Shown here piece after piece: positions 13,886-64,000 of a stretch of 64,000 nucleotides of DNA. Each line of letters opens with the position of its first letter. Position 1 is the first letter of the stretch. The notes below the pieces were generated by a model, which made no database searches, was not told where the DNA came from, and saw nothing but the letters and a program-made list of their open reading frames with translations. Where the stretch lies: NCBI GenBank assembly GCA_964453505.1, contig CAYVPJ010000014.1, forward strand, positions 240 through 64,239, in the 5' to 3' direction. Both the position numbers and the translations under genes were made by a program. This DNA is from an uncultured Oscillospiraceae bacterium. GTDB taxonomy: Bacteria > Bacillota > Clostridia > Christensenellales > Aristaeellaceae.

Positions 13886-13897
13886 ATGGCGCTCCCC

Positions 13898-14848: not shown

Positions 14849-14864
14849 ATCGTTACCGCCTCCG

Positions 14865-16876: not shown

Positions 16877-17662
16877 ATGAAAAAATACGATATAATCCGC
16901 GAAGCGCGCAACCGCGACGGCTCGTACAAGATAGTTAGGCTACGCACGAACGACTCCGGTCCGGACGACATGCACGCCGCGATAGAGCTGTACCACCTGT
17001 TCATGAATCAGTACATGGACATAGTGCGCGCAGGCGACGAAACGGCGCTTATGCGGCTGTTCAGTGAAAACAGCTTCATATTGATAGACTATATGGGCGA
17101 TATGGCGCAGGACAGGCATATAGACGCTTTGTTCTCGATAGCGTGGGGAATGCAGGCGGCGATGGAGGGCGGATTGGACCCGATAACCGCGTACAAAATG
17201 CGCAACGAACAGTTGTCGCGGTTGGGAGAGCTCACGGGTTATCACGAAATAATGACGTATGTGGGCGAGATAATGCTGTCGTACTGCCGCGCCAGCGCGC
17301 GGGCGAAGAACGGCGACGCGCCGGAGGGCTTGGTGCGCCGCGTGGCGAGGGTGATTTCGCGCAACGCGTATGTAAAGATAACGCCAACCATCGTCGCCAA
17401 CGCGCTGGGCATGAACGCGGAGTACGTGTCGCGCAGGTATAAGGCGCTCACGGGCAGGACGATAAAGCAGGCGAGCCTCGAGTATAAAATACTGATAGCC
17501 CGCCGCGAATTGCGAGACACTCGCAAGACGATAGACGATATAGCCACCCTTCTCGCGTTCTCGTCAGCGAGCCACTTCCACAGGGAGTTTACGAAGCGGA
17601 CGGGCGCGACGCCGGGCGAGTTCCGAAAAAGGCTATTGCAAAATAAAATCGATAAGGAGTGA
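16877..17662 (+). CDS. Soluble AraC-family transcriptional regulator
   Basis: ATG at 16877 lies 6 nt after GAGGTG. C-terminal HTH IDDIATLLAFSSASHFHREFTKRTGATPGEFRK. Divergent from the SBP operon. Confidence 0.85.
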   Translation: MKKYDIIREARNRDGSYKIVRLRTNDSGPDDMHAAIELYHLFMNQYMDIVRAGDETALMRLFSENSFILIDYMGDMAQDRHIDALFSIAWGMQAAMEGGLDPITAYKMRNEQLSRLGELTGYHEIMTYVGEIMLSYCRASARAKNGDAPEGLVRRVARVISRNAYVKITPTIVANALGMNAEYVSRRYKALTGRTIKQASLEYKILIARRELRDTRKTIDDIATLLAFSSASHFHREFTKRTGATPGEFRKRLLQNKIDKE

Positions 17663-17667
17663 CCGAG

Positions 17668-47970: not shown

Positions 47971-48246
47971 ATAAAAAATTCCCTCAAATCGTCTGTCGTA
48001 TGCCATATATCCGTCTCTAATGTTAATGATACAACCAACTTCGCAAAAACGATATACACGGAATCTATCAATTTGTACCATTCTCATGCCGCACATAACA
48101 TTCGCGGCCGCACGAACGCCGCGCAGCCTTGCGTTTCAAACGGCGCATTTATATTGCAATTATGCTTCCTGTCTGTGCGCATAAGCGCCGGCCTGTTTTC
48201 GGACAAACCCCGCGCCCCGCCTTGAAACGCGTGAAATTGTAGCTTT

Positions 48247-48273
48247 ACAAAAACGCCACCCTGTCGGGCGGCG
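48247..48273 (-). terminator. Rho-independent terminator closing the AT-rich island genes
   Basis: Minus strand: CGCCGCCC-GACA-GGGTGGCG (one G-U pair) followed by TTTTTGT, about 50 nt after the stop at 48325. Confidence 0.6.
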
Positions 48274-48324
48274 CGGAAAGATAAAACCGTAATCAGGCGA
48301 ATTGATCAAAGCACATTATTTGTT

Positions 48325-48951
48325 TCACTCCGGGCGCTCAGGCATTCTTCCGTACAAGTCGTTCAATTCATCACCGTCGCAGTAACCAAGTAACGCGGAT
48401 ACATTCTGAAACAGTTCAGGAACGAGTCCGTAAGCGGTCATTCTTCCGTGCCCTTCGAGAACAATATAGCGTTCCTCAGCTTTGTCCGTCAAGAATATCA
48501 ACGGCGGAAAAGTGTAGCCATCTCGGATTTTTTGCGCGCCGCTCAGTGCCCTATCATTTGGAACGCCGTATATGGTCTTTCCCGATAATATGGTCTTAGC
48601 CGCCTCAAGCGGCGACCCAGTGTAATTCGATAGCTCGTTCCAATAACTATATTCTATATAGAAAATCTTACTGATATCTTCGGCATCAAACGCAGCCCAT
48701 ATCCAGTCGATTTTCTGCGGGAATCTTTCAAATATCTCAGAATCAGGATAACCTCTGAAGCGCCCAAGCACAATCTTTCTCAACGCGTTCTCATTGCTTG
48801 ACTGTTTATCGCCGTTTTCGATAAGCTTCCTATCAAGGTTCAGTTCCAGTAATACAGAGAGTATCTTTTCGGAATACCGATCAGAATCTATCTCCATTTT
48901 CAGAAACTCCAAAACCATTTCATCTTCATTTGATTGTTTGATTTTCCTCAT
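48325..48951 (-). CDS. Hypothetical protein in the AT-rich island
   Basis: RBS GAGGGA. 208 aa. AT-rich codon usage unlike the flanking genes. The segment YIVLEGHGRMTAY is faintly ParB/Srx-like, but I cannot assign a family. Confidence 0.6.
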   Translation of the reverse strand: MRKIKQSNEDEMVLEFLKMEIDSDRYSEKILSVLLELNLDRKLIENGDKQSSNENALRKIVLGRFRGYPDSEIFERFPQKIDWIWAAFDAEDISKIFYIEYSYWNELSNYTGSPLEAAKTILSGKTIYGVPNDRALSGAQKIRDGYTFPPLIFLTDKAEERYIVLEGHGRMTAYGLVPELFQNVSALLGYCDGDELNDLYGRMPERPE

Positions 48952-48958
48952 GTATCCC

Positions 48959-49237
48959 TCATAGCGCAGTGTTCAGTTTGCATTTTGGATAGCAAAACGC
49001 CATCGGATAATATGATCCAAATATCCCGACAAACACTGCGCATATCTCTTGTTGTGATGTGTGAAATCTATATTTTGCCTGTGCAATATCCGTATCTCCA
49101 ATCGTGTTCATCTGCATATTCCGATTTCCCGCGTCGCTCGTCCAATGTACAAATATAAAGTTATAAAGATAAATGATATTCTCATCAGGCGGGATTATCG
49201 TTTCTTTGCCGATAGTCTTACATTCATCAGTTCCCAT
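48959..49237 (-). CDS. Small hypothetical protein, start uncertain
   Basis: Stop is 8 nt upstream of the next gene's start. No convincing RBS at ATG 49237. Overlaps the upstream gene's 3' end by 11 nt. Could be a remnant. Confidence 0.3.
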   Translation of the reverse strand: MGTDECKTIGKETIIPPDENIIYLYNFIFVHWTSDAGNRNMQMNTIGDTDIAQAKYRFHTSQQEICAVFVGIFGSYYPMAFCYPKCKLNTAL

Positions 49238-49955
49238 ACTGATGTGGAACATACGGCAGAATTGCCCATGTAACATCATCTGCGGATATGTTTTTCGCCT
49301 CAAGGCTGCGATAACCGACCGTTGCTTCTTCGCAGGGATACTCCCGACAATCAAAGCAGGTTTTTTTGTTTTTTCTTTTTAGGCAGTTGATTGGCGGACA
49401 TGTTTCGCTTCCGTCTTGATAGCACTGACAACCCGGCGTGTCACACCCGGTACAGCGCATATCCCAGTTTGTGCTTCCATACACTGCCGTCAGATGTGGT
49501 ATCAGCATCGTTCTGAAATCATCCGCGATGCCTGTGAAATGCACGCACTGATCACAGCGGTGTCCGCACTTGCCGTATAGCGCCTTCTCTTTTGATGAAG
49601 GTTTACGGTTAGGCTTCTTTTTGAGCACTATCAGCTTTTTGACATTTTCCAGCGTGGGTAAATCATCTACGCGTATCAAAAGCCACTTACCGTCATGAAG
49701 CGTCCTCTCATTGTCGTATAAGTCCTGTATCTCTTTCGAAAACTCATTTCGCTGTTCTTCAAATTTCTGTCGTTCAGCCATGCCAAAGACTATAAGGAAG
49801 TCTAAATAATCAGGGTGAAGAAGCACCGTAACAATCGTTTTACTTCCCTGGCGAAATCGCACACACCGATTGCCGGAGTGCACGCCTGCCACCTCGTCCA
49901 AACGATATTGCCCACGCAAAAACTTAATAGTCTCCCGAACAACTTTTTCGTACAT
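49227..49955 (-). CDS. DUF3788-like + DUF3795-like Cys-rich fusion protein
   Basis: ATG at 49955. N-terminal half matches my recollection of the DUF3788 pattern (FLIVFGMAERQKF ... DGKWLLIRVDD ... LIVLKKKP). C-terminal half is Cys-rich: CGHRCDQCVH ... CTGCDTPGCQC ... CPPINCLKRKNKKTCFDCREYPC. Confidence 0.6.
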   Translation of the reverse strand: MYEKVVRETIKFLRGQYRLDEVAGVHSGNRCVRFRQGSKTIVTVLLHPDYLDFLIVFGMAERQKFEEQRNEFSKEIQDLYDNERTLHDGKWLLIRVDDLPTLENVKKLIVLKKKPNRKPSSKEKALYGKCGHRCDQCVHFTGIADDFRTMLIPHLTAVYGSTNWDMRCTGCDTPGCQCYQDGSETCPPINCLKRKNKKTCFDCREYPCEEATVGYRSLEAKNISADDVTWAILPYVPHQYGN

Positions 49956-50261
49956 GCTAATACGCCCCCATTTGTATATTGTCTTTCGGTTGCGTTGGCA
50001 CACGCATAATCAACTTGGTCTGCATATTTTGTGTCTCCATGCCCGTCTGTGCCATAGTATCATTGTTGCGATTACTACAGTGCCTTGTATCCGTTCACCT
50101 TTTTCATAACTTTCTATCCATTCCGGCCTTCATTAAATCAAATAAACGGTTTGGGGTTTTGCTCCCAAACTTTATGATTGGATATAGCGCTTGCACCCGA
50201 ATAATCAGGACTTCCGTAATGACTTGTACCTGCAGTAGATTTTGTGATATTTCTAAGCAAA

Positions 50262-50819
50262 CTAATATTCCAGAAATCCTTCTAATATTATGTCAGAGTT
50301 GTTCTTTCTTAAGTTCATACTTAGCATTTCCTGATGGATTATTTCCTTAACGCCTTCAGTTTTTATTGAGATCGTACCGTTTGTTTTCTTAATCAAATTT
50401 TCATATGGTTTACCTTTGGCTAGTTGCTCTGCCATATTAAACATTTCTTTACCTTTCCTCTCTATATACAAAAAGTCGTAAAATTGCAAAAACGGTACGA
50501 AGTCTATAGCAATCCATAATGCAATGATCCAAATAACAATATAGTTATCGTTATAGTGCGACATAGCATATTCAACTACATCACCAAACAGCTCGTCAAA
50601 ATCAAACACAATACTGTCGTATCCTTTTGCCATTTGATGAGGATTATGCATGTAGAACGATTGCTCTTCAATATACCAGTATAATTCTGATATAACTAAC
50701 AGATCAAATTCAAAGTTACCACACATTATCGGCCCATTTCGTAATACATCGATCGACTCGTTCCATAATCCTGCATTTTGCAGTTCAGCTATTTTGTCTT
50801 TATACTGAACAATATCCAT
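50262..50819 (-). CDS. Hypothetical protein in the AT-rich island
   Basis: Strong RBS GGAGGAG 6 nt upstream of the ATG. 185 aa, acidic and aromatic-rich. No family recognised. Confidence 0.6.
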   Translation of the reverse strand: MDIVQYKDKIAELQNAGLWNESIDVLRNGPIMCGNFEFDLLVISELYWYIEEQSFYMHNPHQMAKGYDSIVFDFDELFGDVVEYAMSHYNDNYIVIWIIALWIAIDFVPFLQFYDFLYIERKGKEMFNMAEQLAKGKPYENLIKKTNGTISIKTEGVKEIIHQEMLSMNLRKNNSDIILEGFLEY

Positions 50820-51332
50820 GTCTGCTCCTCCTATCGCTTGGGATACACGTCAGACAACCAATACACTTTCATCATATTCTTCGATTGAGAATCTCTTTCT
50901 ATAGTACCGCCTTTATCAATATATCAAATAAGATTACTATGATAAAAGGCGAGAGAATTTCTGCCAGTCAATAATCTGTCAGAATTAGTGCTCCTACAGA
51001 TTGCGCAGTTGTAACACCTGCTCCGCAGATAATGCGACCCAGTCTCCTCGTCCCTGTATACCGGCAACATCTGAACAGATTCGGCGCTGCCAACGTCTCG
51101 TATTCAGTTTTCAAAATACAGCAGCCTGTGGACTCATCTGTATATTTGTTTAGAAAAGTATACACCAATTCTTCACATTAATCAATACAAATATGCGGAA
51201 ACAGTATAACAGACTTTTTATCGGAATGAGGAGCACAAAAAGTAACCCGACGGCAATGCAAGCCGTTATCGCTCACTTTGAAAAAGGCGAATCCGCAGGC
51301 TGTCCGGCGCATAACAGTCTATAACGCCCGCC

Positions 51333-51361
51333 TTGACAGAACGACGGAGAAACGCTATATT
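51333..51361 (+). promoter_or_regulatory. Consensus-like sigma-A promoter (TTGACA, 17 nt, TATATT) pointing into the 3' end of the ldt gene
   Basis: Exact -35 hexamer at 51333-51338, a 17-nt spacer, and TATATT at 51356-51361. No plus-strand gene lies downstream. Confidence 0.3.
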
Positions 51362-51453
51362 GCTATCGCCTGCGGAGACGGGGATTCAGGAATCTCTTAC
51401 TTCGCCGCGGAAGCCGCATATACATATATTTTGAATGCTTCCCAATGCGGTGT

Positions 51454-52146
51454 TTACTCGGCGTATATAACTATAACCGCCTCGTCTCCGAGTTTTTGCA
51501 TTAGTCTGATCATGTCGTCGCGGTCGACGGCTATGCATCCGCTCGTGTAAGTCTTTTTGCCTTTACAATGGAGAAAGATCGCAGAGCCGGCGTTTTCAAC
51601 GCCCTCTTTGTTGTATTCGATAAACAGGGCATACGCATATTCATTCGGGTAATCGATAAGATGCTCGTCGTTCGAAGTCGGTTCGTAGTCGGCGCGCACG
51701 CTTAAGTCGATCAGTCGATTGTAATCCAATGTGCCCGAAGCGCCCGACCAGTAATGCCGATCTGTCACTTGCACATATCCCGCCATGCGCGCGCCCGGAT
51801 CTTCAAGTATGCCAAACGGTGTGCTGAGGCAAAACACGCCTTCGGGCGTCTTTTTGTCGCCCTCCTTCGTCTTGCCCAGACCGTTTGCGCCTATGAACGC
51901 GTTCGCGTTAAGGCTCGCCGACCACGTTCCGTCTTCCTGTTTCTCGTAAAGCGTCAGCAGCGCCGATGCGCCTTCCGTCCAAGCTACGCCCACAATCTGC
52001 GTCGCATTCAAAGACGCTTCAAGCGTCGCTTCCGGCAAACAGGATCGATCCGCTTGCGCAAAACACGGCTGCACGGTCAATAACAGCGCCAGCAGCAGAG
52101 TTATCATAAAATCAGCTATCGCCAAAACTCTTTGGGATGAACGCAT
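51454..52146 (-). CDS. L,D-transpeptidase (YkuD/ErfK family)
   Basis: Signal/anchor FMITLLLALLLTVQPCFA. Catalytic motif GSAIFLHCKGKKTYTSGCIAV (His ... Gly-Cys). Confidence 0.85.
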   Translation of the reverse strand: MRSSQRVLAIADFMITLLLALLLTVQPCFAQADRSCLPEATLEASLNATQIVGVAWTEGASALLTLYEKQEDGTWSASLNANAFIGANGLGKTKEGDKKTPEGVFCLSTPFGILEDPGARMAGYVQVTDRHYWSGASGTLDYNRLIDLSVRADYEPTSNDEHLIDYPNEYAYALFIEYNKEGVENAGSAIFLHCKGKKTYTSGCIAVDRDDMIRLMQKLGDEAVIVIYAE

Positions 52147-52429
52147 ATCAATTTTTGCCTCTCTCCACAGTATTACATCGCCGCGGTCTCGCGGCGGCGC
52201 GTTTTGTCTTTTATTTTACTCTGCAGTGTCCGCAAAATGTCAACAAAACCGCGGGCGGTATCATAATGCGCGAAAAATTTACATTATACAGTCGCGCGGT
52301 TTGTCGAAACGACATGAAATGCGGCGGTTTGTGCGATGGCAGCTTGAACGTATCACACAAATGCTGTATACTGTATCGGACGGTAAACATTTTAATCTAT
52401 GCCCTACAAAATAGAATGGAGACGAACCG

Positions 52430-53731
52430 ATGGGCTTTCTGGCGAACGCCACGATAGATCTGACGGCAATCGTCGTCGTTTTCTTGCTTTATGTGAGCGG
52501 AAAGCGCGACCGGCAGACGGATTTCCGCCAGTCGATTTTCGATAAAATGATCCTGTGCCTGATATGTTTTCTGTCAGTCGATCTCTGCGCCTGGTATGTG
52601 GACGGAAAAGACTTCGTTTTCGCGAATGCCGTTCAAATGACGCTCAATTCTTTGGTGTGGCTGACTCAAGCAGCGTTATCATTCCTCTGGCTTATATACG
52701 TTGAATACTGGGTCGATTCATCAGAACGCCAAATCGCGAAGCGGATAAAGATATACGCGATACCGCTCATATTGGAAATCGGCTTGTTGACGGCGAACGC
52801 TTTCACCAAATGGCTGTTCTATATAAACGATCAACACGCGTATACGCACGGTGCGCTATATCCGCACATATTGATTGTCTTTTATGTGTATGGCATATAT
52901 GCGTGCATCATAACGATGAAGGCGTTTTTTTCGGCGAAGGACGCGGAACAAAAAAAGAATTGTCTTTGGATGTCAGGCTTTATGGCGTTGCCGTGCGCGT
53001 TTTCCGTGGTTCGAGTGTTCACGTATGGCATTTCTTTGATTTCGCCGATTTATGCGCTTTCATTGCTTATGGTCTACTTAAACGTTCACCAGCAGCGCAT
53101 GATTCAGGAGAGAAATAAAGTGGCGCAGCGGGACGCCGATTTGCAGCGGGCAAAAATATCGATCATGTTGAGCCAAATTCAGCCCCACTTTCTTTATAAC
53201 GCGCTCTGCGTAATTCAAGATTTGTGTCACGACGCAGCGCCGGAGGCGGAGAAGGCTACAATCGCGTTTTCGCGCTTTCTGCGCGGCAATTTAGACTCGC
53301 TCAAAGCGGACAAACCTATCCCGTTTTTACAGGAACTCGATCACACAAAATATTATCTGACGCTCGAGGGTATGCGCTTCGGGCAGCGCCTAAAGGTGGA
53401 ATACGACATACAGGCGGATTGTTTTCAAGTGCCGGCTATGTCGCTTCAGCCAATCGTCGAAAACGCGGTGCGCTACGGTGTGATGAAGCGCGAAACGGGG
53501 GGCACTGTCAAAATATGCGCGGCCGAACTTGAGAAGAATTTTGTGATAACCGTCGAAGACGACGGCATTGGCTTCGACCCGGGTCAGAAACACGACGACG
53601 GGCGCACGCATATCGGCATAGACAACGTGCGCCAGCGCCTGCGTGAAATGTGTTCGGGCGATCTGAAGATTGCAAGTATGCCTAGCGCGGGCACAATCGC
53701 GACGATCCTTATACCAAAGGAGGGCTGTTGA
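52430..53731 (+). CDS. LytS/YehU-type sensor histidine kinase with a polytopic N-terminal sensor domain
   Basis: Six or seven TM helices. His_kinase motif IQPHFLYNALCVI. HATPase region PIVENAVRYG, VEDDGIGF, HIGIDNVRQRL. RBS GGAGA. Confidence 0.85.
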   Translation: MGFLANATIDLTAIVVVFLLYVSGKRDRQTDFRQSIFDKMILCLICFLSVDLCAWYVDGKDFVFANAVQMTLNSLVWLTQAALSFLWLIYVEYWVDSSERQIAKRIKIYAIPLILEIGLLTANAFTKWLFYINDQHAYTHGALYPHILIVFYVYGIYACIITMKAFFSAKDAEQKKNCLWMSGFMALPCAFSVVRVFTYGISLISPIYALSLLMVYLNVHQQRMIQERNKVAQRDADLQRAKISIMLSQIQPHFLYNALCVIQDLCHDAAPEAEKATIAFSRFLRGNLDSLKADKPIPFLQELDHTKYYLTLEGMRFGQRLKVEYDIQADCFQVPAMSLQPIVENAVRYGVMKRETGGTVKICAAELEKNFVITVEDDGIGFDPGQKHDDGRTHIGIDNVRQRLREMCSGDLKIASMPSAGTIATILIPKEGC

Positions 53732-53732
53732 A

Positions 53733-54542
53733 ATGCTGATATACGCGGTTGACGACGAAAGAACGGCGCTGAATATACTGACGCGCGCTATCAAAGACGC
53801 GGTGCCCGACGCGGAGCTTCATACGTTTCAAACCGTTTCCGACATGATCGCGCGATTAAACAGCGAGCATGAAACGCCCGACGTGGCGTTTCTTGATATA
53901 GAAATGCCCGGCATGACGGGAATCGAATTGGCGCGGCTCATAAAGGTGAGCGCGCCTAAGGTGAACATAATCTTCGTGACGGGTTTTTCCAAGTATGCGT
54001 TGGACGCGATGGCGGTGCGACCGAGCGGATATATTATGAAGCCCGTCGATAAAGATCAGATTCTCGGCGAGCTTCGGAATCTGCGCAATCCTCCGTCGCG
54101 AACAATCCCGGACAAGCGCATTCGCATACAATGCTTCGGCGATTTCGAGATTTTTGCGGATGGGCGCGCGGTCGCGTTTACCAGAAGCAAAGCGAAGGAA
54201 ATGCTCGCGTATCTGGTTGATCGACGCGGGGCGAACTGCGCAAGCGCGAAGATCGCCGACGCGCTGTGGGAAGACGGCGTATACGACCGCGCCCGACAAA
54301 AGTTGTTCTCAACGATATATGCGGACATGATCAAATCTCTAAAACGGGTGGACGCCTCGCACATCGTGAAAAAGACTAACAACATGATTGCCATTGACCC
54401 AAATGCGTTCGATTGCGACTACTATTCGGCGCTGCTCGGCGATGCGGTCAGCGTCAACAGCTTCATGGGCGAGTATATGGCGGCGTATTCGTGGGCGGAG
54501 TTCACAACGGCGGCGTTATCCGTAAATCTGTCGCCGGAGTAA
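53733..54542 (+). CDS. Response regulator: REC + SARP/OmpR-type winged-helix DNA-binding domain
   Basis: ATG lies 8 nt after AAGGAGGG. Receiver motifs MLIYAVDDE and FLDIEMPGMTG. C-terminal IRIQCFGDFEIFADGRAVAFTRSKAKEMLAYLVDRRG ... IADALWED is SARP-like. Confidence 0.8.
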   Translation: MLIYAVDDERTALNILTRAIKDAVPDAELHTFQTVSDMIARLNSEHETPDVAFLDIEMPGMTGIELARLIKVSAPKVNIIFVTGFSKYALDAMAVRPSGYIMKPVDKDQILGELRNLRNPPSRTIPDKRIRIQCFGDFEIFADGRAVAFTRSKAKEMLAYLVDRRGANCASAKIADALWEDGVYDRARQKLFSTIYADMIKSLKRVDASHIVKKTNNMIAIDPNAFDCDYYSALLGDAVSVNSFMGEYMAAYSWAEFTTAALSVNLSPE

Positions 54543-54577
54543 CGCGAACAAACATAACAGAAAATTCTTGATTGACT

Positions 54578-54606
54578 CTCGGATTTCTTGATCCGAGGGT
54601 TTTTTG
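54578..54606 (+). terminator. Rho-independent terminator
   Basis: CTCGGAT-TTCTTG-ATCCGAG followed by GGTTTTTTG. Confidence 0.8.
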
Positions 54607-54625
54607 TGGACATTTTGTGGACATT
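54604..54625 (+). promoter_or_regulatory. Exact tandem 11-nt direct repeat TTGTGGACATT x2, candidate response-regulator operator
   Basis: Two identical 11-nt units head to tail, giving one helical turn of periodicity. They lie 6-10 nt upstream of -10-like TATTCT/CTTAAT and about 115 nt upstream of the 54742 ATG. Confidence 0.5.
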
Positions 54626-54741
54626 CGCAGTTATTCTTAATGCGCGACGATGCGGAGACGTCTATCGGGTATACGAATGAGCGATTGAAGATATGACAGT
54701 AATCCCACGTTCGAAGCACTACAAAAACGAGGAGGGCACTT

Positions 54742-55347
54742 ATGAAGACGGACTTGCTTCCGATTACACAAACCCCTGAAAAAATCGCGGACGCGCTCGA
54801 TAAGATCGAATTGATAGCGTTATACACGGGAATGCCGCGCAGGGACGCTACCAGTATGCGCCTTTTGGCGGAGGAACTGTTAAGCGCGACAAAAGACATT
54901 CTGGCGGCGTATGAGGGACGGCTCTGGATGGAGACGAGCGAAACGCAGTTTACGCTTCACATGAGCGTAGCAAGACCCGCGAACAAAGCGGATCGGGAAA
55001 CGCTGATCGCGCTTTCGAAGAACGGCGAGATAACGCCTCCAAAGGGCTTGTTCTCGCGCCTCGGGTCGGCAATGAGCAAGTTTCTGACGCTGGACGACGA
55101 CGAACTGTATTCAGACACATTCGCGGATTATGCCATGTTCGCCGGAGTCATACACGGAGAACAGACAATACCAATGTATACATATCATTATATACCGCGC
55201 GCCGAACCGAAGTCTAACGAGCCAAACAAGCCGATAGACGAACTGAGCGGCATCGAAAAGAGCATTATAGACGCGATTGTGGACGATATTCAAGTGACGG
55301 TCAAGAGCGGCAATATAGAGATAATCGCAATAAAGAACTTAAAGTGA
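54742..55347 (+). CDS. Hypothetical protein with a degenerate RsbW/SpoIIAB-like (HATPase-fold) pattern
   Basis: RBS GAGGAGGG. SMRLLAEELLSATKDIL resembles the anti-sigma kinase helix, but the N-box Asn is absent. C-terminal GIEKSIIDAIVDDIQVTVKSGNIEIIAIKNL resembles the terminal G2/beta region. No DxGxG motif. Confidence 0.4.
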   Translation: MKTDLLPITQTPEKIADALDKIELIALYTGMPRRDATSMRLLAEELLSATKDILAAYEGRLWMETSETQFTLHMSVARPANKADRETLIALSKNGEITPPKGLFSRLGSAMSKFLTLDDDELYSDTFADYAMFAGVIHGEQTIPMYTYHYIPRAEPKSNEPNKPIDELSGIEKSIIDAIVDDIQVTVKSGNIEIIAIKNLK

Positions 55348-55361
55348 AAGAGGCGCTGATC

Positions 55362-55658
55362 ATGAAGATTGACAAAACGCAGAACGGATGCGAACTCGTT
55401 ATAGCATTAACGGGACGGCTTGACACGACCACCGCTCCCGATTTGGAGAAAGAAGCGAACGCTTCGCTTTCCGGAATCACGAATCTGACGATCGACTTTT
55501 CGAAACTCGACTATATATCAAGCGCGGGGCTGCGAGTGCTTCTCGCCATGCAAAAAACCATGAACAAACAAGGCAAAATGAACGTGAAGAACGCAAATGA
55601 AAATGTGCGCGAGGTGTTTGAGATTACGGGGTTCAGCGATATTCTGACGATAGAGTAA
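55362..55658 (+). CDS. STAS-domain protein (anti-sigma-factor-antagonist family)
   Basis: ATG lies 8 nt after AAAGAGG. Motifs LTGRLDTTTAPDLEKE and IDFSKLDYISSAGLRVLLAMQK (conserved Ser position). Ends FEITGFSDILTIE. Confidence 0.85.
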   Translation: MKIDKTQNGCELVIALTGRLDTTTAPDLEKEANASLSGITNLTIDFSKLDYISSAGLRVLLAMQKTMNKQGKMNVKNANENVREVFEITGFSDILTIE

Positions 55659-55689
55659 TTTGCGCGAGCGTTTGGCAGGGGAGGCGCGA

Positions 55690-55989
55690 ATGATTACGAT
55701 AAATACACGCGCGGACGGAACTGCACTGACGATATATGTTTCCGGACGGGTAGACAGCATTACCGCCCCCGAGCTGGATAAAAGAATCAGCGAAGCGCTT
55801 CCGGGCTGCGAACGACTGATACTTGATTTCGCGGGCCTTGAGTACATCTCAAGCGCCGGCTTACGAATACTGATGTCGCTTGCGAAGACGATGAACAGAT
55901 TGGGCGGCATGAAGTTTCGAAACGTCGCGGAAAGCGTGAGCGAGATATTCGAGCTTACGGGATTGCTCGCCGTGTTTGACGTTGAATAG
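55690..55989 (+). CDS. STAS-domain protein, second copy
   Basis: ATG follows GGGGAGG. Motifs VSGRVDSITAPELDKR and LDFAGLEYISSAGLRILMSLAK. Ends FELTGLLAVFDVE. Confidence 0.85.
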   Translation: MITINTRADGTALTIYVSGRVDSITAPELDKRISEALPGCERLILDFAGLEYISSAGLRILMSLAKTMNRLGGMKFRNVAESVSEIFELTGLLAVFDVE

Positions 55990-56017
55990 CATCAACCAAT
56001 ATTCGGAGGAGGCTGTT

Positions 56018-58285
56018 ATGCGCATAAGACTTTGGCTGTTCGCGCTGATATTGATTCCGATTGTGTTCGGGTATTCGGCATTGTCTGAAACGTCTTCGCT
56101 CGACGCGTTCGACAGTGCCGCGATCACAATCGGCGTTCCGACAGGATCGGCGGCGATGAACGCTACAGAAGCTCGTTTTCCCAACGCCCAGATACAATAT
56201 CTGACAGTGGACAACGACGGCTATCTTTCCGTCATATCAGGGAAAATCGACGCTTACGCGCACGATACAACCGTGCTCAGGTATGCGTGCGAGGAAAATC
56301 CCAAATTGCGTATGCTAAATGAAACATATGGCGAGACGGAGATCGCCGTAGGCATATCCCCCAAACGCAAGGATTTGAAGGAATCGGTGAACGCTTTCGT
56401 TCGGGAACTGATCGATTCGGGCGCGCGCGACGATATGCTCAAGCGCTGGCTGACAGACACGGAAAACGCCATGCCGAAACTCGACGAGCCGCAGAAAACT
56501 GATATGACCATTCGCGTCGGCACGTCGGGCATCGTCGTGCCGATGACCTATTACGGCGCTAATCAGGAACTCACGGGCTTCGACATCGAATTTCTCAAAC
56601 GCCTCGGTTTGAATATGAACGCAAAAATCGATGTATCCGTAATGAATTACGACGCGCTTATCGCGGGATTGGAATCCGGCAAGCTCGATCTTGTGATAGC
56701 GAATCTGAACATTACGCCCGAGCGCGCCGAACGCATCATATACTCTATCCCCTATATGACCGCCGCCACGGGTCTTGTGGTAAAAAACGACGCAAGCCTG
56801 CCTGACTTTTCGAAAATCGAAGATTACAGCGAATACTTCAGTTCGGGCAAGCGTCTTGGCATTACGGTCGGCACGACATTCGACGGCATCGCGCAACGCC
56901 TGTTCCCGGACGCGCAACGCTTATACTACAACACGGGCGCGGAGTTGGTCGCCGCTTTGATCGACGGGAAAATCGACGGATACCTAGTCGACAAACCGCA
57001 GGGATACGCGCAGTGCCTTTTGAACGACAAGCTGTGGATGCCTGACACGTTAATCGCGGACGATAACTACGGAATCGCTCTGGCTTTGGGAAACGAAGAA
57101 CTGTGCGCACAGATGAATGAAATCATTTTGAGATACGCTTCGGACGGCACATTTGACGCGATGGAGCAAAAGTGGTTTTTGATCGACGAAACGCAGAAGC
57201 CCATGGCTGATATTGCGCTGTCCGGCGAAAATGGCGTTTTGCGATTGAGCACGACGGGAGATTCCTATCCGTTCTCATATATCCGCGATGGCGAACCCGT
57301 TGGCTACTCGATTGAGGCGTTCAAAATGATATGCGGCGAATTGGGATACGACGCGGAGATCAGAATATCTGATTTTGCCGGCCTGATCGCGTCCATATCA
57401 TCGGGGAAAACCGACGCGGCTTCAGACTGTATATCGATCACCGACGAGCGCAAAGAGCAGATGCTGTTCACTGAGCCGACATATAAAGGCGGCGTAATGA
57501 TGATGCTGCCGGCGGCGCTGAACCCTGCCAATTACGCAGACGGCGAAGGGGCAAATATCGGGTTCGCAGCGACTTGGGCGTCGATCGCATCGAGTTTTGA
57601 GCGCACATTCATACGTGAAAACCGCTGGAAGCTGATCGCGCAGGGGCTGCTTACGACGCTGCTCATATCCGTGTGCGCGGGGCTTCTCGGCACCGCATTC
57701 GGCTTTGGAGTGTGCATGGCGCGCAGGTCGCGCTTTGGCGCGCTGTCCGGCGCAAGCAGGATATTCATACAGCTGATGCAGGGCACGCCAATTATGGTAT
57801 TCCTGATGATACTCTACTACATCGTGTTCGGAGACGTGAAGCCCGTGCTTGTTGCCGTGGTCGGCTTTGCGCTCAACTTCGCGGCGTATGTGTCAGAAAT
57901 GATGCGCACGGGCATAGACGCGGTGGACAAGGGGCAAATCGAGGCGGCGAGCGCAATCGGCTTCACGAAAGCGCGCGCGTTTCTGCTGATCACTCTTCCG
58001 CAGGCCGCGCGGCACTTTCTGCCTGTGTTCCGCGGCGAGTTCATCAGCCTTGTCAAGATGACGTCCGTCGTGGGCTACATATCCATTATGGATCTGACCA
58101 AGATGAGCGACATTATTCGCAGCCGCACATATGAGGCGTTTTTCCCGCTCATCGCTACGGCGGTCATCTATTTCCTGCTCTCGTGGATATTGGCGCAAAG
58201 CCTTTCCGCCATAGAGATGCGAATCGACCCCAAACGAAAAAAGCGCAAGATCAGGGGCGTGCGAGAGGAGGCCGACGCGCAATGA
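56018..58285 (+). CDS. Fused polar-amino-acid-type ABC component: SBP_bac_3-like segments + HisM/GlnP-like permease
   Basis: ATG follows GGAGGAGG. Signal/anchor [21 protein letters not shown]. One complete SBP_bac_3-like domain ([33 protein letters not shown] ... QKWF) is flanked by partial ones. Permease has [15 protein letters not shown] (EAA-type loop). Confidence 0.85.
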
Positions 58286-59364
58286 TGATATCGATAAAGC
58301 ATCTGCAAAAAAAGTTCGGGGATTTGACCGTGTTAAGCGACGTGAACGCAGAGATCGACGAAGGCGAAGTCATTTCGATCATCGGGCCTTCCGGCACGGG
58401 CAAATCGACCCTGCTTCGGTGTATCAACCGTTTGGAGACGCCCACATCGGGCGAGATTTGGGTCGACGGCGTAAACGTGTGCGACCCGCGCGCAAACCTT
58501 ACAAAGGTTCGGCAGAAAATGGGCATGGTGTTTCAGAGCTTCAACCTGTTCGCCAATCGGCTGGTGATCGATAATGTAATGCTTGGACCAATGAAGCTAA
58601 AGAGAATGCGCGCGCAGGAAGCCTATGCGAAAGGCATGATACTGCTGGACATGGTGGGTCTCAAGTCAAAAGCGAAGGCATACCCGGAAGAGCTTTCAGG
58701 CGGGCAGAAACAGCGCGTGGCAATCGCGCGGACGCTGGCGATGGACCCGGACATCGTGCTGTTCGACGAGCCGACTTCGGCGCTAGACCCGACGATGGTT
58801 TCAGAAGTGCTGGCTGTTATGCGGACGCTGGCGGGACAGGGACTAACGATGCTGGTGGTCACGCACGAGATGAAGTTCGCGCGAGACGTATCGACGCGGG
58901 TTTTCTATATGGACGAAGGCGTGATATACGAAGAAGGCGCGCCGCTTCATCTTTTCGAGCATGCGCAGAGAGAAAAGACGCGCATGTTCGTAGAAAAGGT
59001 GCGCGCTTTCGAAAGGGAGCTCGACGGCGACGCGTTCGACATGTACGGCATGAACGGCGAAGTGGAGCTGTTCTGTCAGAGACAGGCGGTCAAAGAAAAG
59101 CGCATATCGAGACTTGAGCTGTTGATGGAGGAGCTGATAGTCAACGGCGTGTTTCCCCGCCTTCCGGCTTCGCGGAGAAAGGTTACGGCGCGAGTGATGT
59201 ATTCGGAAGTCAACGACAGCTTGCAGCTGGAGCTTCGATACGGCGGATACGATTTTAATCCTATGGATTCCGAAGAAATGTACGCCGTGATTGCCAAGCG
59301 CATAACAAGCGATGCTGTACACTACTGTGAAGACGGCAGGAACATACTGATAGCGACGCTGTGA
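58282..59364 (+). CDS. ABC transporter ATP-binding protein (GlnQ-like) with an RsbW-like C-terminal extension of about 115 aa
   Basis: ATG overlaps the permease stop (ATGA). Walker [10 protein letters not shown], signature [16 protein letters not shown], Walker [14 protein letters not shown]-loop VVTHEM. Tail: [17 protein letters not shown] ... [15 protein letters not shown] ... [23 protein letters not shown]. Confidence 0.9.
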
Positions 59365-59506: not shown

Positions 59507-61015
59507 ATGAAAAGAATGAGAAGTCTGATAGCCTGCACGGTTTTATTCGCAATCGTTTGTTGCGTTGCATGTAATCCGTTCGCGATTGCCGACGCGTCAA
59601 GCGGCGGCGGCGTAACGGCGCTCGACTATAACAAGCAAAGGGCTGACATTTCGGGCGCTAATGATTATATAACGTCTGTCGGGTTAAGCGACGCCGAGGC
59701 GCGTCTTGACGATATTCTTCAAGAGCTAAAGGAAGAGTATTCGAAATCAACAGGCGGGAATGCAGATTACTCCATTCCGGTTCTTTCTGATGAGACTATA
59801 TGGTTAAGCAAGCTGTACCAATTGTGCATAGACATTCCCAAGGGTTCGGACTTGCACGTTCATGCCTCGGCGCTTTTGCCTGTGAAAGAGCTTGCGGACT
59901 TCCTATCAAAGAGAAGCGATGTAGAAATATGCACATCCGGCGATCAAAAGTACGTTCTCTTCCTTAGCGCAAACGCGGAAAGACCCGATTCATGTAAAAC
60001 GATGGCTGAGGCGCTTTCCGACGGTTCTGTTTCATTTGATGAGTTGCTCTCGAAATGGACAATCCTCGGCGCGGCAGAACAGGAGGATATATGGGTGTTT
60101 TTCGAAACGCTGTTTGATAAAGACATGGTTTTGAGCAGTGGCGATGATTTGATGCAGGATTACTATGAGTACGCTTTCCGTTATTACTACAAAAACAACA
60201 TCAAGCATCTTGAAATTCGCGCGTTGTTTTTCGGGACGAATGAGGAAGCCGCTCAGAAAGCAATAACAATCAGGAACGCATACTATAAAGTGAGAGACGA
60301 GTATCCCGACATGATTGTCAGCATCGTCGGATGCGGGCTTAAGCGCACGAATATCGACGAAGTCGTGACAGATGTTCTTATGGACAACAACCTGTTCGTA
60401 TATGAGAATGTCAAAGATGAATATAACCCGAATCAACATTGCGATTTTATGGTGGGCATTGATCTGGTTAATGAAGAAGACGATAGCAGACCGCTTTCGT
60501 TTTATCGGGATATGATTGAAACGATAAAAGCAAAACACCCCGAATTGAGAGTGCTCCTTCATGCGGGTGAAAGCCTTCACGCAGACAGCGATAACCTGAT
60601 TGACGCATATTTGCTTGGTTCGAAGAGGGTGGGACACGGGCTGAATCTTTACCGTTACCCGTCTCTGCTGGACTTGTTCATTGAAGACGATATATGCTTA
60701 GAGGTATGCCCCATAAGCAACAATACGCTGAGATATGTTCATGACTTGAGATTACATCCAGGGCTGGAATATTTGAAGCGAGGCGTGCCGATGGTTCTGG
60801 CATCTGACGATCCGTCATATCAGGAGCACACTTCGCTGGTAGACGATTTCTTTGCGGCAATCGTAGCGTGGGATTTGGGCGTTGCGGAGATCAAGCAACT
60901 GTGCATGAATTCTATAACATATAGCGCGACGAGCGAAAGCAACAAAGAATACATGACGGAAACATGGATCAATGATTGGGACTTATTTGTGCATTCATAT
61001 GCGGATCAAGAGTAA
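59507..61015 (+). CDS. Secreted adenosine deaminase, ADGF/CECR1 (ADA2)-like subfamily
   Basis: Signal peptide MKRMRSLIACTVLFAIVCCVACNPFAIA. Metal/catalytic motifs KGSDLHVHASA, LLHAGES, RVGHGLN, LASDDPS. Long N-terminal extension before the first HxH motif. Confidence 0.8.
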   Translation: MKRMRSLIACTVLFAIVCCVACNPFAIADASSGGGVTALDYNKQRADISGANDYITSVGLSDAEARLDDILQELKEEYSKSTGGNADYSIPVLSDETIWLSKLYQLCIDIPKGSDLHVHASALLPVKELADFLSKRSDVEICTSGDQKYVLFLSANAERPDSCKTMAEALSDGSVSFDELLSKWTILGAAEQEDIWVFFETLFDKDMVLSSGDDLMQDYYEYAFRYYYKNNIKHLEIRALFFGTNEEAAQKAITIRNAYYKVRDEYPDMIVSIVGCGLKRTNIDEVVTDVLMDNNLFVYENVKDEYNPNQHCDFMVGIDLVNEEDDSRPLSFYRDMIETIKAKHPELRVLLHAGESLHADSDNLIDAYLLGSKRVGHGLNLYRYPSLLDLFIEDDICLEVCPISNNTLRYVHDLRLHPGLEYLKRGVPMVLASDDPSYQEHTSLVDDFFAAIVAWDLGVAEIKQLCMNSITYSATSESNKEYMTETWINDWDLFVHSYADQE

Positions 61016-61744: not shown

Positions 61745-62982
61745 CGTTTGCCCTCCATATCGCCCAAAATCGACTCGCACTGTATGGATTCACGATAGCC
61801 GTCCACTGCAACAAATCTCATGCGCATCTCCAACATATCTCGGTTTTTCGAAAAAATAAAGTGTTCAATGGGGTCTTCGTCTGTCAGCGTGTAAGCAATA
61901 TGTGTAGTCGTTTGCAGAAAATAGACTCCGACGAACAGCAGCGCAAACAGCACGGCAATTCCGCCGTGGAATTTATAGCTGAACGCGCCCAGCGCGCCAA
62001 GCGGACTTCCTGTTTTTGCCTTACGAGCCTTTTTGGTTGTTTTTAGGATTGCTTTATGGAATATCAAAATCAAAGCCGGCAACACCGTGAAAACACAAAG
62101 CAAACTGCAAAAAACGCCTTTCGCTAAAACGATACCCAAATCCGCCCCGATTGTGAAGCTCATGAATACAAGCATTATAAGGCCGACGATTGTGGTAACG
62201 GAGCTGCTGGTTATCGAACCGAACGCGGATTTCAGCGCGGAAGTCATAGCGTCGTTTTTGTCGTCGGTCTTTTGAAGCTCCTGACGGTAGCGGTTCATCA
62301 GTATAATAGAGTAATCCATGGATAAAACCAATTGCAAAATCGCCGAGATGCCCATTGTAATATCCGAAATTTCGCCAAGAAAGATGTTCGAACCGAGATT
62401 AACAACAATTGCAACGCCGATTGTGAGCAAAAACAACAGCGGTTCAATTTTGGATCCGCAGGCAATAAACAGTATCACCAACATAATGGCAAACGCCAAG
62501 GCGACAACCAATGGCGGAATATCCGGCGAGGAGGTGTCGTCGTTACGAATTGTGATGTTATACTCCGAAAAGCTCTCTGTCAAATAGGTTTCTATCGCGG
62601 CTTCTTCCTGAGTATCATAACCGTATTCCGTGCCGACGGAATACAGCGTGTAATCGCCTTTGTTGTAATTCACGTCATCGGCATTATAGGCGACGCCGCT
62701 CACATTCGGTATAGCTGCCAGTTTTTCTTTTACTTCAAGTTTCTGTTGTTCTGTAAGCCCTTCAAACATGACGCGGATTGAGTAAGTTTCGGCAATATCG
62801 GGAAACTCGCTCTCCATCAGGTTCATTCCGATCTTCATGGGCGAATCATTCGGCAGATATTTCGTCATATCGCTGTTGATTCCGACTTTAGGTATGAATA
62901 TACCGCACACGACGGTCAGCAGCGCCATCAGTATCAGTATTAATGCTTTCTTTCTTACGATAAAGGAGGAGGTTTTTTCCAT
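61741..62982 (-). CDS. MMPL/RND-superfamily transporter, N-terminal half only, probably truncated
   Basis: TM1, an extracytoplasmic loop of about 150 aa, TM2-6 (LQLVLSMDYSIILMNRYRQEL) and one further TM. It then ends shortly into what should be the second loop. Full-length MMPL proteins have 12 TM helices. Confidence 0.65.
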   Translation of the reverse strand: MEKTSSFIVRKKALILILMALLTVVCGIFIPKVGINSDMTKYLPNDSPMKIGMNLMESEFPDIAETYSIRVMFEGLTEQQKLEVKEKLAAIPNVSGVAYNADDVNYNKGDYTLYSVGTEYGYDTQEEAAIETYLTESFSEYNITIRNDDTSSPDIPPLVVALAFAIMLVILFIACGSKIEPLLFLLTIGVAIVVNLGSNIFLGEISDITMGISAILQLVLSMDYSIILMNRYRQELQKTDDKNDAMTSALKSAFGSITSSSVTTIVGLIMLVFMSFTIGADLGIVLAKGVFCSLLCVFTVLPALILIFHKAILKTTKKARKAKTGSPLGALGAFSYKFHGGIAVLFALLFVGVYFLQTTTHIAYTLTDEDPIEHFIFSKNRDMLEMRMRFVAVDGYRESIQCESILGDMEGKR

Positions 62983-63213
62983 GTTTTATTATCCTTCCTG
63001 CTACGGCAGCGCCGTTATGCCGCTATGATGGTCGAAAACTATAATGTTTCATTTTACATGTCTTGACAGAATCACGCTTGAGTATTATATTTATGTTTAG
63101 CGTTTAGATCAACCAACTGTTTATTTTAAACTGATTTGGTGTCTACAAATCAAACGGATTTCGGTTTGAACTCAACACATTCCGAAAATCAGTTGAGTTT
63201 ACAGGAGGGGCTG

Positions 63214-63750
63214 ATGGAGAATCAGAGAGTGCGGCTGAGTAAAATGATGCTGAAAAACGCGTTATTGAGGCTACTAAAAACGAAACATATAGACAAAATC
63301 TCGATATATGAATTATGCGATGAGGCTCAAATCAACCGTACAACATTTTACAAGTATTATGGAAATCAATACGACCTTCTGACAGATATTGAAAACGATT
63401 TGTTTTTGAAGCTAGAAGAAAAAATTTCAGCGGCAAATTCAGACAACGAGGCGGGTCTTGTAGCTGTATTGAAACTGTTGTTGCCTGAAAGCGAAACTCT
63501 TATAACGTTAATCAAAACCGTACCGGATGAAGTCTTTTCGGAGAAACTATTTTCGTTACCCATTATTCGTACATTGCTCACATCGGAAATTCCGCACGAT
63601 TTTGATGAACAGGAAAAAGAATATGTATATCTGTTCTTCTGTCAAGGCGGTTATGCGATTATCCGCAAGTGGCTTAACAGCGAAACCCGCGAAGCCCCGG
63701 AGATAATCGCAAAGCTGATATACAACCTTGTGCACAGAATACTGAAATAA
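63214..63750 (+). CDS. TetR/AcrR-family transcriptional regulator
   Basis: ATG follows GGAGGGG. HTH ISIYELCDEAQINRTTFYKYYGNQYDLL. Divergent from the MMPL gene. Confidence 0.85.
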   Translation: MENQRVRLSKMMLKNALLRLLKTKHIDKISIYELCDEAQINRTTFYKYYGNQYDLLTDIENDLFLKLEEKISAANSDNEAGLVAVLKLLLPESETLITLIKTVPDEVFSEKLFSLPIIRTLLTSEIPHDFDEQEKEYVYLFFCQGGYAIIRKWLNSETREAPEIIAKLIYNLVHRILK

Positions 63751-63791
63751 TTCATGCACAACCGCCTGTGTGCGATAATGTCATAATGCGA

Positions 63792-63830
63792 AAACCCCGT
63801 GTTACAAAGCGACGCGGGGGTTTGGTTTCT
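63792..63830 (+). terminator. Terminator candidate
   Basis: AAACCCCG, about 15-nt loop, CGGGGGTTT, then GGTTTCT, about 40 nt after the TetR stop. Confidence 0.45.
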
Positions 63831-64000
63831 AAAATTTCATGAAAACCAGCCGAATAAGCGAATGAGCTGTCAACCCATATTCGCAAAAGCCTACTCTCTA
63901 TCGGCAGAAACTGTTTGAGTTCACCCGAACATAGCCCTCGGCATTCACGGCTTAGTTATCGGAATGCCGCTCGCGCAGGTTGTTCGTTGTCCTTAACGAC

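Follow-up and report, generated by a model that had tools for sequence, protein, structure and literature searches.

The 64,000-nucleotide stretch of DNA analysed here (the window), which comes from an uncultured Oscillospiraceae bacterium, carries an operon of five genes that encode, in order, a 201-amino-acid protein of an unannotated family (X201), two single-domain STAS proteins (STAS1 and STAS2), a permease of the ATP-binding cassette (ABC) type fused to substrate-binding protein (SBP) domains, and an ABC ATPase that ends in a C-terminal tail of ~120 amino acids. Upstream of the operon are genes for a sensor histidine kinase and a response regulator, followed by a terminator-like hairpin. 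A preliminary description of this DNA had given the order as kinase, regulator, terminator, exact tandem 11-nt repeat and operon, and all of these were found on the + strand, to which the coordinates of the features below refer, between positions 52430 and 59364. The operon had also been described as tightly packed, which is borne out by intergenic gaps of 0-30 nt or gene overlaps throughout.

The permease gene (56018-58285) encodes a GlnP-like protein fused to at least two tandem family-3 substrate-binding domains, as judged from Pfam and NCBIfam models. SBP_bac_3 is matched in two stretches (2.6e-55) and BPD_transp_1 at 8.2e-21, TIGR01726 is matched with 62.6 bits (cut-off 42.2), and TIGR01096 and models for cystine, glutamine and ectoine permeases also match. 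The ATPase gene (58282-59364) encodes 360 amino acids and begins with a GlnQ-like nucleotide-binding domain (NBD; 58282-58998; PF00005, 9e-35) of a polar-amino-acid ABC ATPase, and the match to the GlnQ model NF007027 ends at residue 240. The score against NF007027 (296 bits) is under the 379-bit equivalog cut-off, and the GlnQ, TcyN and EhuA models give 279-296 bits, each under its own equivalog cut-off. The family-3 substrate-binding domains, the HEQRo-type permease and the GlnQ/HisP-type NBD together place the importer, at the level of protein families, in the polar-amino-acid PAAT/GlnPQ type.

STAS1 (55362-55658) and STAS2 (55690-55989), a divergent paralogue of STAS1 with 43% identity to it, are of the anti-sigma-antagonist type. 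Both are over the cut-offs of PF01740 (22.6 bits) and TIGR00377 (53.45 bits), with 59.5 bits (3.1e-16) and 69.0 bits, respectively, for STAS1, and 51.1 bits (1.2e-13) and 61.2 bits for STAS2. The Ser motif YISSAG is present in each, in agreement with the earlier claim that both proteins keep the conserved Ser, and the full YISSAGL is located at the position of the DS*SGL phospho-Ser loop of SpoIIAA. The Ser presumably corresponds to Ser58 of SpoIIAA and Ser56 of RsbV. Judged by their sequences, STAS1 and STAS2 are members of the anti-sigma-antagonist family that have kept the Ser motif.

Partner switching is usually viewed as a form of sigma-factor control, with few enzyme outputs. The reading of the operon that we favour, and that we consider somewhat more likely to be right than wrong, is that a partner-switching module has the GlnPQ-type polar-amino-acid ABC importer as its output. 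Genes for the kinase and the phosphatase of such a module were sought among the open reading frames (ORFs) of at least 60 amino acids in the 64-kb window with profile hidden Markov models (HMMs) built from 14 RsbW proteins and 18 PP2C proteins of related loci, which came from Clostridia, Ruminococcus or gut metagenome-assembled genomes. Neither a free RsbW kinase nor a PP2C phosphatase was found among these ORFs, the latter as the preliminary description had stated, and the RsbW HMM had no matches other than the histidine kinase (1.2e-5) and the tail of the ATPase (5e-4). The 64-kb window therefore does not encode a complete partner-switching system, defined as a kinase and a PP2C encoded with the STAS proteins.

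RsbW-like folds of the ATPase tail and X201

The tail (58975-59361) as delimited here includes a linker that overlaps the end of the NBD, and the folded domain starts near 58999. The tail of the window ATPase has no Pfam, NCBIfam or PDB sequence match of its own, PF13581 (HATPase_c_2) being absent at E <= 1. PDB sequence searches with the tail and with the tail profile returned noise only, and a word-indexed search for homologues of the tail by itself found none; tail homologues were gathered using the full-length ATPase as the query. The AlphaFold2 (AF2) model of the window tail has a predicted local distance difference test score (pLDDT) of 93.2 and a predicted template-modelling score (pTM) of 0.86. 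When the model was compared with the PDB by Foldseek, the top 22 matches were all anti-sigma kinases (SpoIIAB, UsfX, RsbW, SiaB and the RsbW domain of Rv1364c), the best of which was SpoIIAB 1tid_A (E 6.9e-6, template-modelling (TM) score 0.71). A sequence-profile match to the RsbW family, which is absent for the single window sequence against Pfam, is reached at the level of the family. PF13581 is matched by 28 of 60 ATPase homologues (whole-protein E <= 0.01, best 2.7e-6), a profile of 40 tails matches the free RsbW-type kinases of related loci at E 2.5e-9 to 4e-5, and alignment of the tail family profile with 14 free RsbW kinases by hhalign gives a probability of 98.1% (E 1.2e-13) over 105 columns. 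The fold model and the family profiles thus identify the tail as an RsbW/SpoIIAB-type domain with the Bergerat/GHKL alpha-beta sandwich fold. The preliminary description had proposed an RsbW-like tail and had named a match to an unrelated domain, such as NIL or ACT, as the outcome that would speak against it. The fold search, the profile alignment and the PF13581 matches among the homologues uphold the proposal, and no such unrelated match occurred. NIL, ACT, TOBE and CBS domains were ruled out as identities of the tail, since the fold search returned anti-sigma kinases only.

The tail retains the Glu-x3-Asn of the N-box (EELIVN in the window, consensus EELxxN), and in the tail alignment the second Glu of this box (position E53) is invariant and the Asn is the majority residue. 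The other ATP-binding motifs have been altered. The adenine-binding Asp of the G1 motif is replaced by a Tyr that is at least 90% conserved (YxGxxYNP in the tails versus DxGxxFDP), a deletion of ~11 residues removes the ATP lid, and the GGLG of the G2 motif has become DDLS, or EEMY in the window. Loss of the G1 Asp, the lid and G2 suggests that the tail is a pseudokinase, and given the lost motifs the tail is not predicted to phosphorylate the STAS Ser. The 120 best ATPase homologues, from 7,992 proteins at E <= 1e-60, all carry the tail; they are 355-373 amino acids long, align with 89-100% coverage and belong to several phyla, with Kiritimatiellae and Smithellaceae records among them. This uniformity of length and coverage indicates that the tail is a family trait. 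At two related loci an in-frame TAG occurs directly before the tail (L060:6974-6976 and the same position in L061), at the conserved Gln of EGTPxQIF, and the NBD and tail are read there as two ORFs. A nonsense mutation, variation between strains or readthrough could account for the TAG.

X201 (54742-55347) is a cytoplasmic protein for which no match was found in Pfam, NCBIfam or PDB sequences, and ten members of its family scanned against Pfam likewise gave no significant match to the X201 region. Its AF2 model is of moderate confidence (pLDDT 70, pTM 0.69). The core of the model, which consists of a strand, two helices and two strands and then a helix and two strands, is confident, while an insert of ~60 residues is poorly modelled, and residues 93-171 have low confidence. 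The top seven Foldseek matches of the model are RsbW/UsfX chains (probability 1.00, best E 2.9e-3, target-normalised TM 0.63-0.73), among them RsbW 6m37_C (0.72), followed by SpoIIAB chains (about 0.6) and, lower down the ranking, SiaB. The model thus suggests an RsbW-like fold for X201, with weaker confidence than for the tail. Because sequence profiles fail to link X201 to RsbW, this assignment draws on fold and context. Residues R40, L41, A43, E44, E45, W62, S92, G102, E172, K173 and D182 are invariant in the X201 family, and the family alignment has no N-box Asn, no DxGxG (G1) motif and no GxGxG (G2) motif. X201 was considered as the missing kinase and was ruled out, as it has no ATP motifs and a separate intact kinase adjoins it in relatives.

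The claims made earlier for X201 fared unevenly. That it is a degenerate RsbW-like protein is supported by fold matches to RsbW, UsfX and SpoIIAB ahead of all others, at lower confidence than for the tail, and that neither RsbW-like element has a clear DxGxG ATP lid agrees with the loss of the G1 and G2 motifs from both. The claim that X201 and the tail share the same RsbW-like pattern stands in so far as each resembles RsbW, but the two have no detectable sequence similarity to each other (BLASTP E 0.14; hhalign probability 9%), and they are therefore not claimed to be paralogues.

The X201 family is large. A first search found 30 homologues of about 200 amino acids, and an HMM scan gave at least 1,127 clusters at 50% identity with E <= 1e-3, or 750 with E <= 1e-10. 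Most members have about 200 amino acids; tandemly duplicated members also occur, with about 400-430 amino acids (P0153-P0156, P0162, P0169, P0173 and P0183). One protein of 739 amino acids, P0222, has a Mbeg1-like (lipase-class) domain fused to an X201 domain.

RsbW and SpoIIAB are obligate dimers, and it is conceivable that the tail uses a dimer interface of the RsbW type to pair with a free RsbW-like protein, X201 in the window and a live kinase elsewhere, and that this pairing controls the ATPase while the STAS proteins only titrate the partner. Consistent with such a heterodimer, the PDB matches of the tail are dimeric complexes, the N-terminal strand and helices that correspond to the SpoIIAB dimer interface are the best conserved and most confidently predicted parts of both models, and the tail, X201 and free kinases co-occur. 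The dimer of the ATPase, however, already brings two tails together, which favours a homodimer of tails, and the lack of similarity between the tail and X201 also argues against their pairing. We regard control of the ATPase by a heterodimer as quite improbable.

Gene neighbourhoods in other genomes

Eighty metagenome loci with a tail-ATPase were collected with a 15-sequence tail sub-alignment, a sample biased towards one clade, and in 18 of these a STAS gene lies no more than about 1.3 kb from the tail-ATPase gene, usually at 50 nt or less. At least 1.5 kb of sequence is available on both sides at 32 loci, of which seven carry a STAS gene, seven a gene for a free RsbW kinase and eight a gene for a PP2C. 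The SBP-fused permease is present at all tail-ATPase loci that have upstream sequence. A STAS gene follows or flanks the X201 gene directly at nine of 11 genome loci, which represent Thermotogota, Synergistales and Clostridia. The neighbouring STAS proteins at other X201 and tail-ATPase loci are 35-62% identical to STAS1, and Y[ILV]SS[AS]G is found in almost all STAS proteins of related loci, STAS2 being more divergent. These sequences suggest that a single STAS subfamily occurs across the X201 and tail-ATPase loci. The gene association, whose recurrence the preliminary description had proposed as a check, was thus found again across phyla. Of the checks proposed there, all those that were run favoured its interpretation.

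The closest relative, L100, shares all seven genes in an unchanged order, the histidine kinase gene included, with X201 72% and the ATPase 84% identical. On the 3' side of this set L100 has, in the region 13611-15810, a GNAT-like gene and then a gene for a 537-amino-acid SpoIIE-family (PP2C) protein, which makes it a locus with a PP2C and no kinase. Where L100 has these two genes, the window has on the 3' side of the ATPase gene a gene of the adenosine/AMP-deaminase family (59507-61015, + strand), the 502-amino-acid product of which has an N-terminal hydrophobic segment. From this comparison it seems that the phosphatase gene of the window was lost or moved.

A kinase, a PP2C or both are also encoded at L007, L018, L102 and L105-L109. 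L108 has a packed run of genes for the SBP-permease, the ABC ATPase with tail, STAS, HATPase_c_2, NMT1 and dCache-HAMP-SpoIIE proteins; L018 has the ABC ATPase with tail, STAS and HATPase_c_2; and in L102 a SpoIIE-HATPase_c_2 fusion is followed by STAS, the SBP-permease and the ABC ATPase with tail. L007 combines most of these elements with X201, in the order SBP-permease, ABC ATPase with tail, STAS, X201, STAS, a 539-amino-acid PP2C-type membrane protein and RsbW. X201 also occurs in partner-switch operons that have neither a sigma-factor gene nor a transporter gene. The operons of Thermotogota L105-L107 have the order SpoIIE (PP2C), X201, STAS, HATPase_c_2, and L109 has a HAMP-SpoIIE-HATPase_c_2 fusion, X201 (65% identity) and STAS. 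Some of the PP2Cs of these relatives thus bear sensor domains, either HAMP or dCache plus HAMP. Since relatives encode both a sensor PP2C and a live RsbW kinase, what the window carries is a reduced form of a complete partner switch.

These operons lie near other transport genes. About 230 nt on the 3' side of the operon in L105-L107 there is a different ABC importer, with an SBP_bac_1/8 protein, a 597-amino-acid double permease and an ATPase with an OB_MalK domain, and more than one family of ABC importer may be associated with X201 modules. Divergent from the X201-STAS operon of L109 are genes for an aminotransferase and a protein of the aspartate:alanine exchanger family (Asp-Al_Ex; L109:1562-4875, - strand), which may be a further link to amino-acid transport or a coincidence.

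The tail is not restricted to ABC ATPases, since it is also present on MATE transporters. L009:2995-4821 and L011:931-2694 encode MatE-family transporters (PF01554, 9e-26 and 1e-30) with a C-terminal tail domain of ~130 amino acids (residues about 475-607) that matches the ATPase-tail HMM at E 3e-8 in L009 and 1e-7 in L011. Both genes are located between STAS and X201 genes. In L012 and L013 X201 is encoded about 9 kb from a tail-ATPase. STAS domains are also found fused to a non-ribosomal-peptide-synthetase-like protein of 1,133 amino acids with AMP-binding, PP-binding and Condensation domains and to an APH-type phosphotransferase of 397 amino acids (L012:12338-15739, - strand, and 17574-18767, + strand; L009:12376-13566). 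These fusions, which lie less than 10 kb from X201 and tail-ATPase genes, suggest a larger STAS network in these Clostridia.

The neighbourhoods bear on two further explanations. The tail could be a plain domain for dimerisation, stability or ligand sensing (trans-inhibition), as in MalK, MetN and ModC, with the STAS proteins and X201 forming a separate module that is merely co-transcribed. Most tail-ATPase loci, L017 and L019 for example, do have no adjacent STAS gene, and the retained Glu and Asn of the N-box leave room for contact with a nucleotide or ligand. Genes for STAS, RsbW and PP2C proteins nevertheless stand beside the tail-ATPase gene, typically at less than 50 nt and in several lineages, at some 20-25% of the loci, the tail is also found on a MATE transporter between STAS genes, and the known relatives of the domain are all STAS-binding proteins. 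A tail of this plain kind appears decidedly unlikely.

Alternatively, signalling could run in the opposite direction, with the transporter acting as a flux sensor. Its tail would bind and withhold X201, a STAS protein or a sigma factor encoded elsewhere, depending on the transport cycle, and the importer would thereby report substrate flux to a distant regulatory output instead of being regulated itself. Such a role has a precedent in the regulatory domain of MalK, which binds MalT. It would fit the anti-sigma-factor fold of the tail and the lack of a kinase or phosphatase in the window to drive a switch, and X201, which occurs in partner-switch operons without a transporter, could be the downstream signalling protein. 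No sigma-factor gene, however, was found in the Pfam-annotated neighbourhoods (L007, L018, L100, L102, L105-L107, L108 and L109). In operons with a dCache-HAMP-PP2C an input is already present, so that the transporter is more naturally seen as an output, and a tail on a MATE exporter suits a portable receiver better than a flux sensor. We consider reverse signalling unlikely.

Two-component system and putative promoter region

The gene at 52430-53731 encodes a membrane sensor histidine kinase in which Pfam identifies a seven-transmembrane sensor region (PF16927 HisKA_7TM, 1.3e-9), a LytS/YehU-type His_kinase domain (PF06580, 2.8e-18) and an HATPase_c domain (PF02518, 1.8e-10). The response regulator (53733-54542) consists of a REC domain (PF00072, 6.6e-20), an OmpR/PhoB-like winged-helix region and a C-terminal extension of ~60 amino acids. 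In phmmer searches of the PDB the regulator aligns through residues 5-189 with DrrB (1p2f) and 3-207 with DrrD (1kgs), and PhoP is matched as well. The C-terminal half alone has no Pfam match, Trans_reg_C and BTAD/SARP being absent even at E <= 10. The earlier label of REC-SARP regulator therefore holds for REC and is compatible with the OmpR/PhoB-type winged-helix alignment to PDB structures, but its SARP part finds no Pfam SARP or BTAD match.

On the 3' side of the regulator gene is an intrinsic-terminator-like element (54574-54607), in which a hairpin with a 12-pair stem (54574-54601) is followed by a T-run that leads directly into the exact tandem 11-nt direct repeat (TTTGTGGACAT twice; 54603-54624). 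A hairpin occurs at the equivalent site in L100 and L101, with a stem sequence that differs from that of the window. In L100 and L101 the 22-mer repeat recurs unchanged ahead of the X201 gene, where the alignment places it within an invariant block of 26 nt, and the rest of the spacer has diverged among the window, L100 and L101, including an indel of 66 nt. The repeat as a product of chance or slippage was ruled out, as it is exact in L100 and L101 despite the diverging flanks. Seven nt past the repeat is a -10-like hexamer, TATTCT (54632-54637), a putative promoter element, and TATGCT is found at the same 7-nt spacing in the alignment of L100 and L101 (TAT[TG]CT overall).

Regulators of the OmpR/PhoB and SARP types bind direct repeats with an 11-bp period beside a -10 element. 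By analogy, TTTGTGGACATTTTGTGGACAT is a candidate operator for the phosphorylated form of the adjacent regulator, and the repeat, the spacing of the -10-like hexamer and the binding habit of such regulators suggest that the operon is switched on by the neighbouring two-component system acting at this conserved 11-bp repeat. One copy of the repeat unit with a single mismatch, TTTGTTGACAT, is present at 52237-52247 (- strand), on the 5' side of the histidine kinase gene. It may serve autoregulation or be due to chance; in a shuffled-sequence control, three of 100 shuffles had at least three matches to the repeat unit. The kinase gene directly follows a stretch of low G+C content (48001-52000), which, like positions 62001-64000, has a value of 0.43-0.45 compared with 0.52-0.58 over most of the window. 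These low-G+C stretches may be boundaries of acquired DNA.

A transporter as the proposed output of partner switching

In the favoured reading of the operon, with the importer as the output of a partner switch, the unphosphorylated STAS protein would dock on the tail of the ATPase as RsbV does on RsbW or SpoIIAA on SpoIIAB. Beneath the two NBDs the tails are probably paired in a dimer like that of RsbW, and STAS docking would alter NBD closure and ATP hydrolysis and hence transport, with either activation or inhibition as the result. In full modules the kinase and phosphatase would set the phosphorylation state of the STAS protein in response to an extracytoplasmic ligand. X201 would be a second pseudokinase partner of the same STAS subfamily that serves as a decoy, a buffer or a parallel output. 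The working hypothesis of the preliminary description was that STAS docking on the tail gates transport and that X201 competes for the STAS proteins. Since the window has no kinase or phosphatase, control there would be mainly by stoichiometry, with the two-component system switching on the whole operon, and any phosphorylation of the STAS proteins in this organism would be due to genes elsewhere in the genome.

Several observations weigh against this reading. With neither a kinase nor a phosphatase in the window, phospho-switching is hypothetical there. The surface of SpoIIAB that holds SpoIIAA includes the ATP lid, and as the tail has no lid, STAS docking may differ or fail. The X201 profile has no significant match to the RsbW set (hhalign probability 8.7%), and the pLDDT of the X201 model is only 70. 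About three quarters of the tail-ATPase loci have no adjacent STAS gene, no such gene is found within 8 kb of the tail-ATPase in L017 and L019, and the frequency of STAS genes near tail-ATPases was weighed against an assumed low base rate. X201 homologues with 51-56% identity, moreover, are orphans in L014-L016.

A broader proposal, which we put forward tentatively and at somewhat less than even confidence, is that RsbW-like pseudokinase tails are portable receivers through which partner switches made up of a sensor PP2C, a Ser kinase and a STAS protein directly control transporters as unrelated as GlnPQ-type ABC importers and MATE exporters, and that X201 represents a large, so far unrecognised family of free pseudo-RsbW decoys or adaptors of these circuits. 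To our knowledge only a handful of cases of post-translational control of bacterial ABC importers have been described (MalK-EIIAGlc, MetN/ModC, OpuA CBS and MlaB-MlaF). If the proposal is correct, transporters join the outputs of partner switching, and nutrient uptake would be subject to a widespread post-translational layer in which an extracellular ligand acts on the transporter in seconds and without transcription. The small phosphorylatable protein and the defined docking domain would offer a ready biochemical handle. Many of the organisms concerned are gut and anaerobic-digester bacteria, and the X201 family, with more than 1,000 clusters, currently has no annotation. The component families, namely STAS antagonists, the RsbW fold and the GlnPQ-type importer, are all known. 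A literature search of incomplete coverage found no published description of RsbW-like tails on ABC or MATE transporters, nor of a partner switch acting on an amino-acid importer, and a review of STAS proteins does not mention ABC transporters (PMC8256260).

The operon and its relatives resemble the RsbU/RsbV/RsbW-SigB and SpoIIE/SpoIIAA/SpoIIAB-SigF modules of Bacillus in having STAS antagonists with a conserved Ser and partners of the RsbW/SpoIIAB fold, and the operons of the relatives also include a SpoIIE-family PP2C and an intact HATPase_c_2 kinase. They differ from the Bacillus modules in that the annotated operons have no sigma-factor gene, an ABC ATPase carries the RsbW-like unit as a fused domain from which the G1 Asp, the lid and the G2 box are gone, there is an extra free RsbW-fold protein with a large insert (X201), and the window has no kinase or phosphatase. 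Partner-switch logic directed at a target other than a sigma factor is shared with SiaABCD of Pseudomonas aeruginosa, in which SiaB is the kinase, SiaC the STAS-like protein, SiaA the PP2C and the diguanylate cyclase SiaD the output, and the SiaB-SiaC complex (6kko) is among the fold matches of both the tail and X201. The HenR/All4160 system of Anabaena likewise extends partner switching to direct regulation of an enzyme (bioRxiv 10.64898/2026.04.08.717354). The outputs of these two systems are a cyclase and a glycosyltransferase, reached with no pseudokinase receiver, whereas here the switch would act on a membrane transporter by way of a pseudokinase domain fused to it.

Among transporters, the tandem SBP_bac_3 domains and BPD_transp_1 permease followed by a GlnQ-like ATPase are as in GlnPQ of Lactococcus lactis, the GlnQ of which, as far as we know, has no C-terminal RsbW-like domain. 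Several ATPases of ABC importers have other C-terminal domains, including those of MalK (which binds EIIAGlc and MalT), the C2/NIL domain of MetN that mediates trans-inhibition, the domain of ModC and the CBS domains of OpuAA. As in these proteins, the extra domain of the window ATPase follows the NBD, where it is placed to couple a cytoplasmic signal to NBD closure. Unlike them, the tail has a GHKL/Bergerat fold rather than a TOBE/OB, ACT-like or CBS fold, and its presumed ligand is a phosphorylatable STAS protein rather than a small molecule or a protein of the phosphotransferase system. A precedent for a STAS protein acting on an ABC ATPase, named already in the preliminary description, is MlaB, a single-domain STAS protein that regulates or stabilises MlaF, and similar mechanisms have been considered possibly wider (PMC7367683). 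The window operon shares with MlaFB the pairing of single-domain STAS proteins with an ABC ATPase, but with the MlaB model NF033618 (cut-off 90) the scores are 29.7 bits for STAS1 and 16.2 bits for STAS2, which are thus not MlaB. MlaB, moreover, binds the NBD itself, and MlaF has a short C-terminal extension for self-dimerisation, whereas here a whole RsbW-like domain is the presumed dock, and the transporter that it would control is a polar-amino-acid importer instead of a lipid transporter.

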